Source: Terriglobia bacterium (GTDB lineage Bacteria > Acidobacteriota > Terriglobia > 20CM-2-55-15). From it: 64,000 bases of DNA. The position numbers and the translations under genes were made by a program. Where the stretch lies: NCBI GenBank assembly GCA_965198225.1, contig CBDAOY010000005.1:32001-96000 (forward strand), read 5' to 3'. The notes below the pieces were generated by a model, which saw nothing but the letters and a program-made list of their open reading frames with translations, did no database searches and had not been told where the DNA came from. Below, piece by piece: positions 27,708-34,686 of the stretch; positions within the stretch are counted from its first letter, which is position 1, and each line of letters starts with the position of its first letter.

Positions 27708-28623
27708 TCAAGTCGCGGGGACTCCCGAAGGCGCCTCCCACAGCGCGGTGCTCATGTAACGTTCGCCGATGTCGTTGAGGATCGTCACGATGGTTCCCTC
27801 TCCGATCCGTTTGGCGGTTTCATACACACCGTGCAGGTAGGCTCCCGACGACTGGCCGGCGAAGAGGCCGTGTCGGGCCAGCAGCGCGCACATGCGGGCA
27901 GAGTCGTCGCTCGAAACGCAAACCCGGTGGTCGACGACGCTCGTGTCCAGAATCTTCGGAATGATGTCGCCGGGAGACTCGAGCGGCTTCAGACCTTCGA
28001 TACCGGGAAAATCCTCGGGAATGATCTGGACGATTTCGACGCCCGGAACCTCCTTCTTCAGTCGGCGGCCGACTCCGGTCAGTGTGCCTCCTGTCCCGAC
28101 GCCGGCCACGAAATGGGTGACGCGGCCCTCCATCTGGACCAGAATCTCGGCGGCGGTCGTCTCGTAGTGAGCCAGCCAGTTGTTGTCGTTTGAATACTGA
28201 TCGCAGTGGAAGAAGCGATGGCCCTCGGCATCGACGATCCGATGGCTCTCGCGCAGCGCCTCGTCGTAGCCTTCGATCGGATCCGTCTCGATCAGCGTGG
28301 CGCCGTGGGACTGTATACGAAGCTTTCGTTCCTTGCTCGCGTTCCCGGGCACCACGATGTGAACCGGGACCTTCATCATCGCGCCGATCATCGCATAGGC
28401 GATGCCGGCATTGCCGGAGCTCGAGTCGAGCACGGCCCGGCCATCCTCCAGCTCGCCGGCCAGCAGCGCCTCGAGGAGCATCCGTCGAACGGGTCGGTCC
28501 TTGAGGCTTCCGCCAGGATTGGCGTACTCGGCTTTGGCGAATACGCGAACTCCCGGAAACTCCTCTTTGAAGCAGAGTATCTCCACCATCCGGGTGTTCC
28601 CGACCAGGCTCAACGCCGGAAAC
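27708..28623 (-). CDS. Cysteine synthase (CysK/CysM family, PLP), 3' exon
   Basis: VGNT, KAEYANPGGSLKDR (PLP lysine), SSGNAG, GVGTGGT, GQSSGA. Begins immediately after the intron 3' end. Confidence 0.92.
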
Positions 28624-28710
28624 ACCGGGTGGCCGGAGGCAGTTGCCCGCCTCCGGCTCCCACAGAACGCAGCGTGCGGATTTCCCGCACTGCGCTCTTC
28701 AGAATTGGAT

Positions 28711-30057
28711 TTACAGCACAGCGAGAGACTGGAACTCCCGATAGCGGAGAGCCAACTTGGGACGCTGTAACGGAAAGTGCAGCTGAATCCGGTTGAATAC
28801 TTCCCACCGGACGAAGCCTGCACGACTACGACTGCTGAGCATTTGGCGCCAGTAACGTTCCACGGCCCGAGCGACGTGCTGCAGAGCCCGGAGGTTCCCG
28901 GCAATGCCATAGTAGGCGTAGTGCCCGCGCAAGACTCGGTTCAGATTGTGCACTTGCTCCCGGACCGGCAAGTGACGCATTCGCCTCATCACGCCGCGTA
29001 GATGAGCCAGACTGCGTCGAAGTCGAGACTTCTCTGTTCGCAGTCCCACTCTAAAATTGCCTTTGCGATTACGCGTACAGTACAGGGTCATGCCCAGAAA
29101 ATAGATCGTCTCTGGACGTTTTCTCCCGCGCCGGACGACATCGCGCTGGGCATAGCGGCCGAATTCGACGAGCTTCGTCTTGGTCGGCTCCGGAACCAGT
29201 CCAAACTTTCCCAGTCGCTTGCGCAGAACGTTCTGGAAACGAAGCGCATCGTCCCGATATTGGAAACACACGACAAAGTCGTCGATGTACCGCACCAGAT
29301 ACGCTTCACCCTTCAGGCGTGGCCGGACCATCCGGTCAAACCACAGGTCAAGCACATAATGCAGGTACAGATTGCTCAGCAGAACGCTGATCGACCCACC
29401 TTGCGGGGTTCCCTCTTCGTTCGAATGCAATTCCCCGTCTTCGAAAACGCCCGCCTTTAACCATCGTCGTATCAGACTGATGATCCGCGGATCTCCGACT
29501 CGATGCTCCACAAAGCGGAGTAGCCATCCATGGTCTAAACTCCCGAAAAAGTTCTTCAAGTCCGCCTCCAACACCCAACTCACCTTGCATCCGGAAATCA
29601 CCTCATGGAGGGTTGCCAGTGCATTGTGGGCGCCCAGCCCAGGCCGGCCACCAAAGGAACAGGGCAAGAAGTCCTGCTCGTAGATGGCGACCAATACCTC
29701 GGCCACGCTGCGCTGAAGGGCCCGATCTTGAACACAGGGCACGCCCAGGGGACGTTTCTCCTGCTTGCCGGGCTTGGGGATATACACCCGCCGAATCGGC
29801 GGAGCGCGATATCCCTTCTGGTGAACAGACTGGAGCATTGGCTCCACCCAGACTCCGAATTCCTCCTTCGCCTCCGGTACCCTCTGACCATCACATCCGG
29901 GAGCCGTGTTGCGGGGCACTTGACACAGGTTCTTCCACACACGCTCTCGGGTGACATGATGCGCCAGTGACGTGAACCGGAGCTTTGGCTCACTCCGAGC
30001 TTTCGCCGCTATTCGTTCCAGTTTCGTTTCCATGACTGGTTGTTCCTCTCGTTGCAT
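28711..30057 (-). CDS. ltrA: Group II intron reverse transcriptase/maturase (no En domain)
   Basis: RRVYIPKPG, RPLGVPCVQDR, GTPQGGSIS, YIDD, and maturase X domain LRGHYAYY. Confidence 0.95.
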   Translation of the reverse strand: MQREEQPVMETKLERIAAKARSEPKLRFTSLAHHVTRERVWKNLCQVPRNTAPGCDGQRVPEAKEEFGVWVEPMLQSVHQKGYRAPPIRRVYIPKPGKQEKRPLGVPCVQDRALQRSVAEVLVAIYEQDFLPCSFGGRPGLGAHNALATLHEVISGCKVSWVLEADLKNFFGSLDHGWLLRFVEHRVGDPRIISLIRRWLKAGVFEDGELHSNEEGTPQGGSISVLLSNLYLHYVLDLWFDRMVRPRLKGEAYLVRYIDDFVVCFQYRDDALRFQNVLRKRLGKFGLVPEPTKTKLVEFGRYAQRDVVRRGRKRPETIYFLGMTLYCTRNRKGNFRVGLRTEKSRLRRSLAHLRGVMRRMRHLPVREQVHNLNRVLRGHYAYYGIAGNLRALQHVARAVERYWRQMLSSRSRAGFVRWEVFNRIQLHFPLQRPKLALRYREFQSLAVL

Positions 30058-30159
30058 AGAGGACCGTATCCTCCCGTTGCATGGAGCTCATGTTTCCCAA
30101 GAACGAGTCCACTTCTGCTGGCCGCTTCCCCATGTGATCGGCTCTCCCGACCTCGGAGT

Positions 30160-32012
30160 GTAGAGTCGAAAGTGGTCGGGCCGATCGGCCCTTCCACCGT
30201 CCGCTCAATCAAACGGCTCGTGCGGTTTTCCCGCAAGCCGCTTTCCTCAGTTGCTCCTCGTTCGGAATTCGCTGTGTGGCGGCAGGTGGCGGCTTCGTTC
30301 GTACCGCGTTTGGGTCTTTCGCTAAGGGAACTATCCAAGTTCACGATATCTCCGCGTTTCCCATCGCTCGCACATTCACGACTGAGTACGGGGACTTCCC
30401 CCTCCAACGGGCCTTTTGGACCCGCCAGCGCCGCTGCTCGAAGCAACGATCCGAGACCTTATGTTTGCCGTCTCGTTCCTGAGTGTAGAGTCGAAAGTGG
30501 TCGGGCCGATCGGCCCTTCCACCGTCCGCTCAATCAAACGGCTCGTGCGGTTTTCCCGCAAGCCGCTTTCCTCAGTTGCTCCTCGTTCGGAATTCGCTGT
30601 GTGGCGGCAGGTGGCGGCTTCGTTCGTACCGCGTTTGGGTCTTTCGCTAAGGGAACTATCCAAGTTCACGATATCTCCGCGTTTCCCATCGCTCGCACAT
30701 TCACGACTGAGTACGGGGACTTCCCCCTCCAACGGGCCTTTTGGACCCGCCAGCGCCGCTGCTCGAAGCAACGATCCGAGACCTTATGTTTGCCGTCTCG
30801 TTCCTGAGTACTATTCCCCGATCCGATTCCTGACACCGCGTCGGCCGGAATTTCGCTCTCGCTTATATCCGCACCTACCGCGCAGGGCTCTAGGTCGATG
30901 TTTGTCTTCTCGGTTGCCCGCCCTTTCTAGGTCTGCGGGGTGTCTGCGGGTGCCACATCATCTCGACCTTACCTTCCGCTCGGACGATACCAGGCCTCCC
31001 TGGGTCACTCGCGTCTCTTCTCCACCGTGTCGCCCGCACACACCTTGGTGCGATGGGGTGGAACCAATGCGCCTTCGCCCCAATAGTGCGGGCTCGACCA
31101 TTCCCCATCTTTGGCCGACCGGTTCATCCTCGGGATGGCTCCCGTCGATTACGACCCGGTGGTTCTCCTCATGCCCTTCAGACCCCACCTCGCGGTGGGC
31201 GCCCTGCCCTCCAAAGTTTCCGTAGCTGGCTCCAGCTTTGCCTTGGCCGTATCCGGCTTTCGCCTTCGTGCCCGTTTAGGCATCTGCACTACCTGTCTAC
31301 ACTTCGGCCAGTGAGGCATTACCCCCACTTGTTGGATATCGACCCGTGGCCTCGGGCCGAGCGGGACTTTAACCCGCCGGAAACGCGTGCTGCCAGGCAC
31401 GCACTATTCCCCGATCCGATTCCTGACACCGCGTCGGCCGGAATTTCGCTCTCGCTTCCTGACACCGCGTCGGCCGGAATTTCGCTCTCGCTTATATCCG
31501 CACCTACCGCGCAGGGCTCTAGGTCGATGTTTGTCTTCTCGGTTGCCCGCCCTTTCGTCTGCGGGTGCCACATCATCTCGACCTTACCTTCCGCTCGGAC
31601 GATACCAGGCCTCCCTGGGTCACTCGCGTCTCTTCTCCACCGTGTCGCCCGCACACACCTTGGTGCGATGGGGTGGAACCAATGCGCCTTCGCCCCAATA
31701 GTGCGGGCTCGACCATTCCCCATCTTTGGCCGACCGGTTCATCCTCGGGATGGCTCCCGTCGATTACGACCCGGTGGTTCTCCTCATGCCCTTCAGACCC
31801 CACCTCGCGGTGGGCGCCCTGCCCTCCAAAGTTTCCGTAGCTGGCTCCAGCTTTGCCTTGGCCGTATCCGGCTTTCGCCTTCGTGCCCGTTTAGGCATCT
31901 GCACTACCTGTCTACACTTCGGCCAGTGAGGCATTACCCCCACTTGTTGGATATCGACCCGTGGCCTCGGGCCGAGCGGGACTTTAACCCGCCGGCGTGC
32001 TGCCAGGCACGC
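30160..32012 (-). mobile_element. ORF-less group II intron B nested in domain III of intron A (935 nt, split by B')
   Basis: 5' GCGTG at 32012; DV AAGCGGCTTGCGGGAAAACCGCACGAGCCGTTT; DVI ending CGACTCTAC at 30160. Removal rejoins CTGATAGT|ACTCCG of intron A. Confidence 0.88.
30485..31402 (-). mobile_element. ORF-less group II intron B' nested in domain III of intron B (918 nt, contiguous)
   Basis: Near-identical to B. Flanked by GGGGAATAGT| and |ACTCAGG, and carries the uninterrupted GGGGAATAGTACTCAGG site at 30803-30819. Confidence 0.88.
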
Positions 32013-32413
32013 ACTATCAGCCAGTCTGACTTCCGACAGGCCTTCGGGTCTTCCTCGCGTTGTTGGCTTGTCCAACCCTACAAGCTCCGCTTGAACCTGA
32101 CGGATCTCCCTTGTTCCCATGAAATCCTTGGTTGCATGCCGGCGGTACGAACCCCGGAAGCACCCCAGGGCACTTGCCATTGCGTGCCCTGCGATTCCGC
32201 CTTCCCCCTAGAGCGACAGGGTCGGCTACTTCAACCACGTTCGATTTCGGGGCTATCTTTCCGTTCACTGGTGTTCCGGCCTACTCCCTCCCTGTCTACG
32301 CTTCGCAGTGTCCGTCACCGACCACCACGCAAGACTCGGTACGTGGCTGCCGGCTAGGCTCTGCCACGGCCGCCATCTCAGGCGACTGGATCTCATGCGC
32401 TTGCAAGGCGCAA

Positions 32414-32469
32414 CGCTCATGAAACTCGACGTAGGATTCTTCGACCGGTATGGTTGCCGCTAAGTTCAT
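32414..32469 (-). CDS. Cysteine synthase 5' exon
   Basis: ATG at 32469 encodes MNLAATIPVEESYVEFHE plus CG. Joining G at 28623 gives Arg and continues in frame as FPALSLVGNT. Confidence 0.85.
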
Positions 32470-32630
32470 CGATTGAGAGGCTAATTAATCAAACAGGTAA
32501 AGAATCAGTGTACCGCAAAAATCGGTGGGTTCTCGCGAGGGACGAGGATGAACCCGTTCAACGAGTTCCGCATGCGAACAGGGAGGTAGGAATCTGTGCC
32601 TGTTTCAATCCCTTCCTTTCCAGCTACTTG

Positions 32631-33527: not shown

Positions 33528-33543
33528 GTTACTGATTACTGAG

Positions 33544-33811
33544 TGTAGGTGCGCTCAATCAAGCTGTGAACGAATTATGGGAACGGAAAATCGGGTGGCG
33601 GGGTTTTTCACGTGTAGATGCGGTCTATGACCGCACAGCTTGTGGTCCCGCGGACATTTGTGCGGTCATAGAGCGCACCTACACTTGAGGCTCGCAGGTT
33701 CTTCGTGAAAAGCCCCGCCACCCGATTCTCCAACGAATGACATTCGTTCACAGCTTGTATGAGCGCTCATGTTTCGGTTCGAAGAGTGTGCGGTCATAGA
33801 CCGCACCTACA
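33544..33811. repeat. Nested REP structure: REPIN interrupted by a 198-bp TIR element that contains another REPIN
   Basis: Outer REP is split as GTAGGTGCGCTC|...|TATGAGCGC. Perfect 16-bp TIRs at 33560-33575 and 33742-33757, inner 24-bp IR, central REPIN at 33613-33683. Confidence 0.8.
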
Positions 33812-33816
33812 CTTCT

Positions 33817-34686
33817 TCAGCTGACTACGGTTTTCGCACAGCGAAAACCGAGCGTCACAGTCCGCAGTGAGGGTTTCGTGTAGTTCCGGTAGTTCACCGT
33901 GAGCATCCGGCTGTCGGGATCGCCCCAGCTGCCGCCCCGGAAGACGCGGTAGACGCCTTCGGCTGGGCCCTGCGGATTCTCGTCGGGACTGACGGCGTAG
34001 TACCCTCTCTCGTACCAGTCCGAAACCCATTCGCTGACATTGCCGGTGGCGTCGTACATTCCGAATCCGTTCGGGGGCAGAGATCCGACCTCGACCGGGC
34101 CGCCGGGCCAGCCAAAGTGCGCCAGAGTCGTCCGCTCGCCGCGTCCGCTCTCTTCGAAGTCGGCCGTATCGGCGACTTCGAAGTCGTCTCCCCAGGGGTA
34201 GTTCTTCCGGTCGAGGCCGCCGCGGGCAGCCCGTTCCCACTCCGCCTCAGTCGGTAGGCGCTTGCCAGCCCAGCCACAATAAGAACTGGCCTCGTCCCAG
34301 TTGACGTTGTAGGCCGGGAATCGCTCCCGACCCGCCGGAACCGCGCCCTCAACCCAATGGTAGGGAGCCGCTCGTCCGGTCGCCTCGACGAAGGCGGCAT
34401 AACGCTCGTTGGTCACTTCGTACTCGTCGATGTAGAACGAGTCGATGAAGACCAGATGAGCGGGCTGGTCATCCATCCGGGGCCGTGCCCGCCAGTTCAA
34501 CTCATCGAGCAGGTTTCGGTGGACCCGGCCGAGCCAGAATTCCCCGGCGGGAATGCGAATCATTCCGGGTTCGGCTCGTTCGGCCGGTTCTGGCTTGGAA
34601 GGTGTCTGCGCAGGGAATGGGGCAGCACTGGCGACGAAAAGAATCGCGGCAGCGAGGATTGCGAACGGCCCTCCGGCTCGACTCAT
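33817..34686 (-). CDS. FGE-sulfatase (SUMF1-like) domain protein, secreted
   Basis: EVTNERY, RLPTEAEWERAARGG, NGFGMYDATGNVSEW, RGGSW, GFRCA. Start probably MSRAGG at 34686. Confidence 0.9.
   Translation of the reverse strand: MSRAGGPFAILAAAILFVASAAPFPAQTPSKPEPAERAEPGMIRIPAGEFWLGRVHRNLLDELNWRARPRMDDQPAHLVFIDSFYIDEYEVTNERYAAFVEATGRAAPYHWVEGAVPAGRERFPAYNVNWDEASSYCGWAGKRLPTEAEWERAARGGLDRKNYPWGDDFEVADTADFEESGRGERTTLAHFGWPGGPVEVGSLPPNGFGMYDATGNVSEWVSDWYERGYYAVSPDENPQGPAEGVYRVFRGGSWGDPDSRMLTVNYRNYTKPSLRTVTLGFRCAKTVVS

Follow-up and report, generated by a model that had tools for sequence, protein, structure and literature searches.

A self-nesting group II intron without a reading frame appears to belong to a clade that parasitizes the domain III loop of other group II introns

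A stretch of 64,000 nucleotides from a Terriglobia bacterium (assembly GCA_965198225.1, contig CBDAOY010000005.1, positions 32,001 to 96,000; hereafter the window, whose own numbering gives all coordinates that carry no contig or locus prefix) contains three group II introns nested within one another. The outermost, A, carries an open reading frame (ORF) and hosts an intron B', which in turn hosts the complete ORF-less intron B, giving the order A[B'[B]]; all three, and the gene that they split, are on the minus strand. We propose, at a probability of roughly 0.85, that B is an ORF-less, self-targeting offshoot of a clade that parasitizes the internal loop of domain III (DIII) in other group II introns. 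The clade would consist of endonuclease-less bacterial introns, encoding reverse transcriptase (RT) and maturase domains, whose habitual homing site is the 5' strand of the DIII internal loop. Covariation shows that the target is recognized by a hairpin loop, 5'-ACUAUK-3', the exon-binding site EBS1, which pairs with exon positions -1 to -6 (5'-N-R-U-A-G-U-3'), the intron-binding site IBS1, and comparison of empty and filled sites shows that the intron enters precisely at the U/A step and leaves the target unduplicated. Since the loop motif is common to many intron classes, one EBS1 could reach hosts of at least four Rfam families of domains 1 to 4 (D1-D4).

Both B copies sit exactly between AUAGU and A of the DIII internal loop of their host (Table 1), and the observation on B, B' and their EBS1 that an earlier, sequence-only reading of the window had made is confirmed. 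The 935 nt of B' begin in A after ...CUGGCUGAUAGU, and its removal is predicted to rejoin the DIII of A as ...CUGGCUGAUAGU followed directly by ACUCCGAGG...; inner B is inserted in B' after ...CGGGGAAUAGU. The same site is empty in inner B, where it reads GGGGAATAGT/ACTCAGG (30820-30803; the slash marks the insertion point here and below), and filled in B', where it reads GGGGAATAGT[GCGTG...CTCTAC]ACTCAGG. This comparison fixes the intron ends to the base (GCGUG...CUCUAC) and makes a shifted cut impossible. What was found is a group II intron within a group II intron, on the same strand and at a defined site, that is, a twintron. There is a negligible chance that faulty assembly or a simple tandem duplication produced the X-X-Y-Y order of intron parts. 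The 3' parts of B' and inner B are 100% identical over 325 nt (period 325), and repeats of this kind confuse assemblers, but the 5' parts differ at three places, all of them indels: B' has a 5-nt deletion near its 5' end and a 36-nt tandem duplication (31420-31493) just upstream of its DIII site, and inner B has a 14-nt insertion (~30928), which is absent from the contigs of all four sequencing runs. The junctions are exact intron ends at the DIII site, tandem duplication would give X-Y-X-Y rather than X-X-Y-Y, and the same nest recurs at three other intact loci and two recombined remnants of this genome (G000, a 6.4-Mb assembly) as well as in the related genome G013.

Both insertion sites lie after D1, D2 and a J2/3-like word (GUCAGA or CGGA) and before domain IV (DIV) and D5. 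The sequence-only reading had placed them in an AGUA/GAA loop above the DIII basal stem, and this placement holds: for A the joined flanks give CUGGCUG-AUAGUA...GAAG-CGGCCAG in the minimum free energy (MFE) fold, and for B a motif scan gives CGGGGA-AUAGUA...GAAG-UCCCCG with 6/6 stem pairs, the MFE fold not having drawn the stem. The clade's own DIII basal stem has modest support, two of its three predicted pairs showing changes on both sides in a 10-member alignment. The DIII internal loop is conserved among group II introns generally, and its motif is seen here in hosts of four Rfam D1-D4 families.

The EBS1 hairpin of B comprises 4 bp (G310-C326 to C313-G323) and a 9-nt loop, GCACUAUUG, and sits within a longer Id stem that also covaries. 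The sequence-only reading had located ACUAUU correctly in both copies, but the arms that it gave, GCCCGC and GGGGC, are not fully complementary and reduce to the 4-bp hairpin. Its claim about the pairing stands, both upstream hexamers being present: ACUAUU forms 6/6 pairs with AAUAGU in B and five Watson-Crick pairs plus one G.U with GAUAGU in A. That ACUAUU belongs inside the EBS1 loop is supported by covariation at two levels. Within the hairpin, the innermost pair, 313:323, is CG in 9, UA in 6 and UG in 1 of 16 aligned clade members. Between loop and target, position 321 is paired with exon position -6 in 33/35 distinct genomic (flank, EBS1) events, 29 of them Watson-Crick (G:C 26, U:A 2, U:G 3, C:G 1, G:U 1). 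This level was reached by 0/10000 shuffles, a comparison that ignores relatedness and in which the non-G states of 321 go back to few changes (to U in the B copies without an ORF, to C in locus L076). Among the 37 scorable metagenome events, from which scoring left out 14 flank groups without an EBS1 by the pattern used, the 321:-6 pair is formed in 36 and all 6/6 positions are paired in 24. Further compensatory cases include L076 (C321:G-6) and, at other positions, L175 (AAUAUG with CAUAUU), L118 (ACUAGG with CCUGGU) and L172 (AAUCUG with CGGGUU); compensatory changes of this kind back the predicted EBS1 register. One sub-lineage of metagenome contigs (L140, L141, L144, L172) has AAUCUG as its EBS1; L172 (CGGGUU/) and L144 (CGGAUC/) are found at matching variant loops behind J2/3-like words, and L140 and L141 at CGUAGU, with 4/6 pairs only.

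Contacts beyond EBS1 are less apparent. The target logo of 77 distinct flanks shows conserved C-R-U-A-G-U at -6 to -1 and a J2/3-like block at -21 to -13, and this pattern is the signature of a DIII base in diverse introns. Positions -12 to -7, the variable DIII stem of the host, differ among these flanks, so that an EBS2-type pairing there cannot be conserved, and no EBS2-IBS2 pairing is evident. A candidate EBS2, the Id loop AGCCAU with CUGGCU of A, fails across other intron-host pairs by eye. An alternative helix, CCCGCAC/GUGCGGG (B 311-317 with 364-370), is strong in the single sequence only and was dropped, since G370A in six members is uncompensated, whereas 313:323 covaries. An EBS3-type contact may be inferred from the invariant A that forms the first base of the 3' exon.

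Thirty-five matches to B were found in the own genome, amounting to ~20 B-type copies. The 5' flank closes with RTAGT in 18/20; of the remaining two, one copy is preceded by GTAAT and the other, which is rearranged, by GATGGC; A is the next base at the 3' junction in 20/20. The hosts are A, two D1D4-2 introns, two D1D4-3 introns, two further D1D4-6 introns and B itself, at least eight host intron lineages in all, and besides A an Rfam D1-D4 match (RF02005, RF02001, RF01999) lies just upstream on the same strand in 7/9 host loci. In host family H8 a motif scan found seven empty sites beside one filled copy, and each of four empty copies compared differs from the filled one exactly by the insert; precise insertion and the absence of a target-site duplication are thereby seen in H8 as in B. 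The first 560 nt of B show 0 substitutions among the copies in A, B and host H6, which points to one master recently active in three host kinds. B-in-B nests occur at four loci (the window and three other intact ones), and two more loci have an X-Y-Y order, the form that would be expected from recombination between nested copies. Each of these two (C5:812868-814096 and C5:3834-4942) consists of a full B and, after it, B 594-918 (or 594-798) once more, the outer 5' part being absent; they look like nest remnants after deletion between repeats. The sequence-only reading had suggested that nesting could repeat; the innermost target is indeed intact and repetition is plausible, but no three-deep B nest was seen among the B matches of this genome. 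Two other loci (C4:150750-153772 and C5:889958-892400) combine a 5' host flank of D1D4-2 type (ATGGCCCGTAGT) with the 3' flank and D5 of A, and look chimeric, from recombination between B copies; locus L041 of G013 has the D1D4-2 5' host flank together with its matching 3' flank. A 59-bit D5-D6 match ~60 nt upstream of the D1D4-2 host D1 (L006 968-1043, equal to C5:889425-889500, and C4:150206-150281) marks another tandem or nested pair.

Two genomes of the same taxonomic family contain B: in G013 the A[B'[B]] nest recurs, and B is also found in H2 (a D1D4-2 host), and G023 has B within an A variant. Further relatives were fetched solely by protein similarity to the intron-encoded protein (IEP) of two ORF-bearing siblings of B, described below, a procedure that is blind to insertion location. 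The genome records supplied 44 loci from many phyla by record title, with IEPs 40-94% identical; 22 of these have a mappable 5' end, the other 22 being truncated, partial or outgroup. TAGT precedes the intron in 21/22, A is first in 13/13 mapped 3' flanks, and a host D1-D4 match lies upstream in 15/18 loci searched (RF01999 in 5, RF02001 in 5, RF02005 in 4, RF02003 in 1), with a host D5 downstream as well in several. Eighty loci came from metagenome contigs, of which 62 were mapped (12 had no D1-profile match and too short an upstream part, and 6 were unusable), and host D1-D4 matches were found in 13/20 searched. The 3' exon begins with A in 53/53 scorable cases from both sources, and RTAGT stands at the 5' junction in 59/77 distinct flanks overall. 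The insertion sites of homologs were the test that the sequence-only reading had named beforehand. They bear it out (RTAGT in 18/20 copies of the own genome, TAGT in 21/22 genome records, RTAGT in 59/77 flanks), most of them lying behind a same-strand group II D1-D4 match recognized by Rfam, and the hosts of the clade fall in RF01999, RF02001, RF02003 and RF02005. That reading had presented B as a hyperparasite of DIII; the targeting stands, but it is not unique to B, being shared by a clade with autonomous ORF-bearing members. An outgroup of eight loci with ~40-47% IEP identity (titled as Verrucomicrobia-group metagenome-assembled genomes) showed no TAGT/GUGYG junction, and nhmmer with the D1 profile gave no match in them; these loci are unusable for showing a change of EBS1 alongside a change of target.

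Self-nesting of B can be related to a single loop position. In 26/26 scorable clade members the hexamer of their own DIII has A at -6, mismatched with their own 321 (G or C), and the sites that they actually occupy carry C at -6. In the ORF-less B master, position 321 is U, a base that pairs with the AAUAGU of B itself and wobbles with GAUAGU of A; U321 is present in 4/4 scorable inner copies of B-in-B nests, and in the G321 siblings of this genome the own DIII site is unoccupied. By removing the -6 mismatch, G321U explains the self-nesting that sets B apart from its relatives, and a single mismatch at this position may suffice as self-protection. In metagenome locus L147 (1-19) an insertion follows GGAUCGGGGUGUAGU, which looks like the DIII of a B-type intron itself, with U at -6 (forming G.U with its G321); possibly this is a self-type nest from outside the lineage with U321.

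Several observations weigh against the proposed reading. Genome G024 has at least five ORF-bearing copies at RTAG(T/C)/A in which a host intron was undetected, only two sub-threshold D5 hits being found there, and two of four G024 sites tested have long spanning frames on the sense strand (347+ and 297 aa). By eye the second of these is presumably a flagellar P-ring protein. Copies in ordinary genes mean that DIII is not obligatory, and in the own genome an old copy at C8:158737 has no Rfam host-intron match, nor has the rearranged copy at C5:3834 an upstream D1-D4 match. Insertion of B homologs in DIII, which the sequence-only reading had put up for test, thus describes most sites, but not all. 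In all five G024 loci compared (L033, L042, L046, L050, L053) a CGAR word stands 1-3 nt upstream of IBS1, a possible IBS2-like element. A rather unlikely alternative is selective survival alone: the introns would insert at any (N)RUAGU/A word with no preference for introns, harmless copies in DIII would persist and others would be purged. It draws on the 6-7 nt to which the identifiable pairing is confined, on near-identical copies in hosts that differ at -7 to -12, on the presence of the same element in ordinary genes of G024, and on the 1672 RTAGTA words (both strands) of G000, which offer plentiful non-intron targets. However, at least 8 of ~10 host contexts in G000 being DIII is far beyond chance, with a binomial P of ~1e-11 by our own rough arithmetic, which takes no more than a few tens of the 1672 words to be intronic; enrichment of this sort leaves targeting and selective retention unseparated. 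ACUAU is invariant in 16/16 aligned members despite IEPs 53-94% identical to that of the B type, which fits a long-held fixed niche better, and where the host loop varies, EBS1 varies to match it (L118, L172, L175). Selective survival accounts for retention but not for these points, and it is partly compatible with a clade that targets DIII.

Other points on the same side concern the hosts and their flanks. Every A copy with an intact site is filled, with an identical master B, and comparison of 5 to 7 copies shows 100% identity in the 5' and 3' parts of A, so that A and its B may have multiplied together at these loci. The wider version of this explanation, in which B entered a few hosts once and its copies were multiplied by host retromobility or duplication, is highly unlikely, and as a sole explanation it is already contradicted: the host introns represent four or more Rfam D1-D4 families and comprise dozens of sequences unrelated to one another, the same B sequence is found in A, B and H6, the H8 family has seven empty sites against one filled, and the loci titled MFD03551 have copies in five different host flanks (L066, L067, L069, L070, L072). 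Closure of the DIII stem with 7/7 pairs is seen in 13/53 loci versus 2/53 in a swapped control, by a crude test. In many metagenome contigs the 5' flank comes from one host type and the 3' flank from another; these mixed flanks, like those of the two G000 loci, could be due to recombination between copies or to short-read assembly chimeras. The pairing itself is imperfect in places, with -6 mismatched in 2/35 genomic events and with 5/6 positions paired in 10/37 and 4/6 in 3/37 metagenome events, and EBS2 and EBS3 were not located in B.

The identity of B as a group II intron also has weaker sides. The D5-D6 match of inner B (RF00029, 30570-30485, E 1.9e-5) scores 36.9 bits, under the 40-bit gathering cut-off, and its D1 match is weak (RF02001, 31199-31092, 24.5 bits versus a cut-off of 32). 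B and its close siblings begin GCGUG instead of the conserved group II GUGYG, and B, having no ORF, lacks the usual IEP in DIV. The RF00029 alignment runs end to end (positions 1-77) over the last 86 nt of B and terminates on its final base, clade members L073 (41.4), L076 (40.3) and L079 (40.2 bits) pass the cut-off, and GUGYG starts the intron in 21/22 genome-record relatives, which makes the B start a variant of the motif. The domain I fold has compensatory (both-sides) changes in 41/88 RNAalifold pairs among the 16 aligned members, and D1 of B measures ~420 nt in that alignment. At the RNA level, the exact 918-nt joint (30484 to 31403) found in RNA library X15 also exists as genomic DNA copies, a 325-nt joint in X14 can be put down to the repeat or to copies elsewhere in the genome, and the ligated DIII of A is in no RNA-library contig, a search of contigs only that says nothing either way. 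The mobility and splicing of B are predictions from sequence.

If the clade does target DIII, a route for B can be outlined. Two ORF-bearing siblings lie in the same genome (C5:503866-501714 and C6:345941-343788), ~95% identical to B over B positions 1-812 and carrying an extra 1.25 kb between positions 812 and 818. This insert holds an uninterrupted 415-aa ORF from TTG with RVT_1 (2.1e-33) and GIIM (1.2e-19) and no further domain. Its best matches among solved structures are the IIC-type RTs 7uim and 6ar1 (3e-65 and 8.5e-63), followed by the maturase-RT 6me0 (7.6e-45) and LtrA (8.7e-39). The sequence-only reading had left the mobilizing protein between the RT of A and another; the sibling RT-maturase, 32% identical to the RT of A, is the likely helper rather than that RT. 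B with U321 would have invaded A and itself to give A[B'[B]], mobilized in trans by the sibling IEP. Insertion would proceed by reverse splicing into transiently single-stranded DNA, as for other endonuclease-less introns, and nests would later be trimmed by homologous recombination between copies. DIII might serve as the 'safe site' that the sequence-only reading had envisaged.

A stronger form of the proposal, which we regard as possible but hold only tentatively, is that these introns are dedicated hyperparasites reading DIII as a structure. A single-stranded DNA hairpin or the folded host RNA would show RUAGUA in an internal loop, splicing and mobility of the host would depend on prior excision of the invader, and B would have lost the -6 self-restraint of its clade. 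If true, structure reading would explain how a pairing of 6-7 nt finds introns among >1000 equal words, and the invader would split the catalytic-effector domain of its host. Under this tentative reading an RNA-level route is also conceivable, reverse splicing into host intron RNA that is fixed upon host retrohoming.

In the window, the nest interrupts a PALP-family (cysteine-synthase-like) gene, which A splits after codon 17. The boundaries of A come from comparison of copies, the 5' one to +/- ~2 nt, and excising 32418-28623 joins exon 1 in frame to FPALSLVGNT. The Rfam search gives A a D1-D4-6 match (RF02005, 32378-32144, 137 bits) and a D5-D6 match (RF00029, 28699-28624, 47 bits). Expression of the PALP-family gene would require three splicing events in succession, the removal first of B, next of B' and last of A. 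In 4/6 copies A begins right after a D5-like hairpin (GAGCCGGAUGCGGGAAAUCCGCAUGUCCGGUUCG) of another intron, and 7/9 of its 3' ends have one common downstream flank (loci compared: window 32418-32470; C5:606919, C5:760174, C5:812460, C6:839755). Introns may thus be homing targets of A as well, near D5/D6; the copy in the window lies in the PALP gene instead. An intergenic segment at ~33540-33830 on the minus strand has several direct and inverted copies of a ~25-nt palindromic word, tgtaggtgcgGtctatgaccgcaca-like, with the look of repetitive extragenic palindromes.

Table 1. Features of the A[B'[B]] nest and the interrupted gene, in coordinates of the 64,000-nt window.
Feature	Position	Strand	Evidence
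Host intron A, ORF-bearing group II	28623..32418	-	Rfam RF02005, RF00029; copies compared; frame joining
IEP of A, 440 aa, RT + maturase	28710..30033	-	Pfam RVT_1 4.8e-29, GIIM 7.7e-5
Outer B', 5' part (D1, D2, 5' strand of DIII)	31403..32012	-	
Outer B', 3' part (remaining DIII, DIV remnant, D5, D6)	30160..30484	-	
Inner B, complete ORF-less group II intron, 918 nt	30485..31402	-	D5-D6 match and weak D1 match
EBS1 of inner B, ACUAUU, terminal loop of Id3-like hairpin	31082..31087	-	
EBS1 of outer B', ACUAUU	31697..31702	-	
IBS1 for outer B', in DIII of A, GAUAGU, G.U at -6	32013..32018	-	
IBS1 for inner B, in DIII of B', AAUAGU, 6/6 Watson-Crick	31403..31408	-	
Unoccupied target in inner B, CGGGGA-AUAGU/A-CUCAGG; cut would be 30810/30809	30803..30820	-	
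DIII basal stem of A, 5' strand, CUGGCUG	32018..32024	-	Fold of joined flanks
DIII basal stem of A, 3' strand, CGGCCAG, GAAG just before	30118..30124	-	Fold of joined flanks
Upstream exon of interrupted gene, 17 codons, ATG...CAT	32419..32469	-	By eye; frame continuity
Downstream exon, PALP family	27708..28622	-	Pfam PF00291 3e-61

The significance of the clade lies in its reach. With a single conserved EBS1 complementary to a motif of the ribozyme core, one lineage can parasitize many unrelated introns in many phyla, and a single base change, G321U, can turn self-avoidance into self-invasion. The clade offers a natural system for interactions between selfish RNAs, in which it may be asked whether an invader silences, regulates or rides on its host, and it raises the question of how a 6-7-nt guide gains specificity, by structure or by selection. 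It also accounts for layered nests of introns, a source of confusion in annotation and assembly.

Homing of group II introns into other group II introns, known from a few genomes, has been described, as have ORF-less copies mobilized in trans, intron nests and their recombinational trimming. For DIII as a homing site, or for a host range that crosses intron classes, no description was found in the full texts searched, and an earlier one may exist, for instance in the database of bacterial group II introns. Group IIC introns do without EBS2 and read a DNA stem-loop. B and its ORF-bearing relatives resemble them in the small endonuclease-less RT-maturase of the latter and in showing no evident target contacts other than a short EBS1 and one at +1; they differ in a much larger D1 (~420 nt, compact in IIC) and in a target that is an internal loop above a stem and not a site 3' of a terminator or attC hairpin. 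For Methanosarcina acetivorans, Dai and Zimmerly in 2003 reportedly described, by the title of the work, homing into related intron ORFs. Nested introns of this species have been reviewed under the term 'perpetual homing site'; the setting is archaeal, and the review's 'Twintrons' text mentions neither DIII nor a cross-class host range (PMC4424553). Self-invasion of an intron is also described in a plant mitochondrion, where, as in B, an intron has inserted into a copy of itself; unlike B, it did so in the dispensable DIV, as part of an organellar, degenerate 'zombie' twintron, with no targeting of a conserved motif in the portion of the account available (PMC7049729). The closest parallel comes from Thermosynechococcus elongatus, in which, according to the available part of the description, ORF-less F3 introns (TeI3c type) home into F1 introns within DIV, between the RT start codons of related introns (PMC2882425). 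As would apply to B, these ORF-less introns are mobilized in trans by the IEPs of related ORF-bearing introns, and, as in the B nests, inner copies are identical and outer ones diverged (PMC2882425). In contrast to the T. elongatus system so described, the target of B is the DIII loop of the ribozyme core, its hosts belong to several structural families and its clade extends across phyla. The site of B lies upstream of DIV and of the ORF of its host, unlike the targets of the T. elongatus or M. acetivorans type, which are found in the DIV or ORF of a relative.

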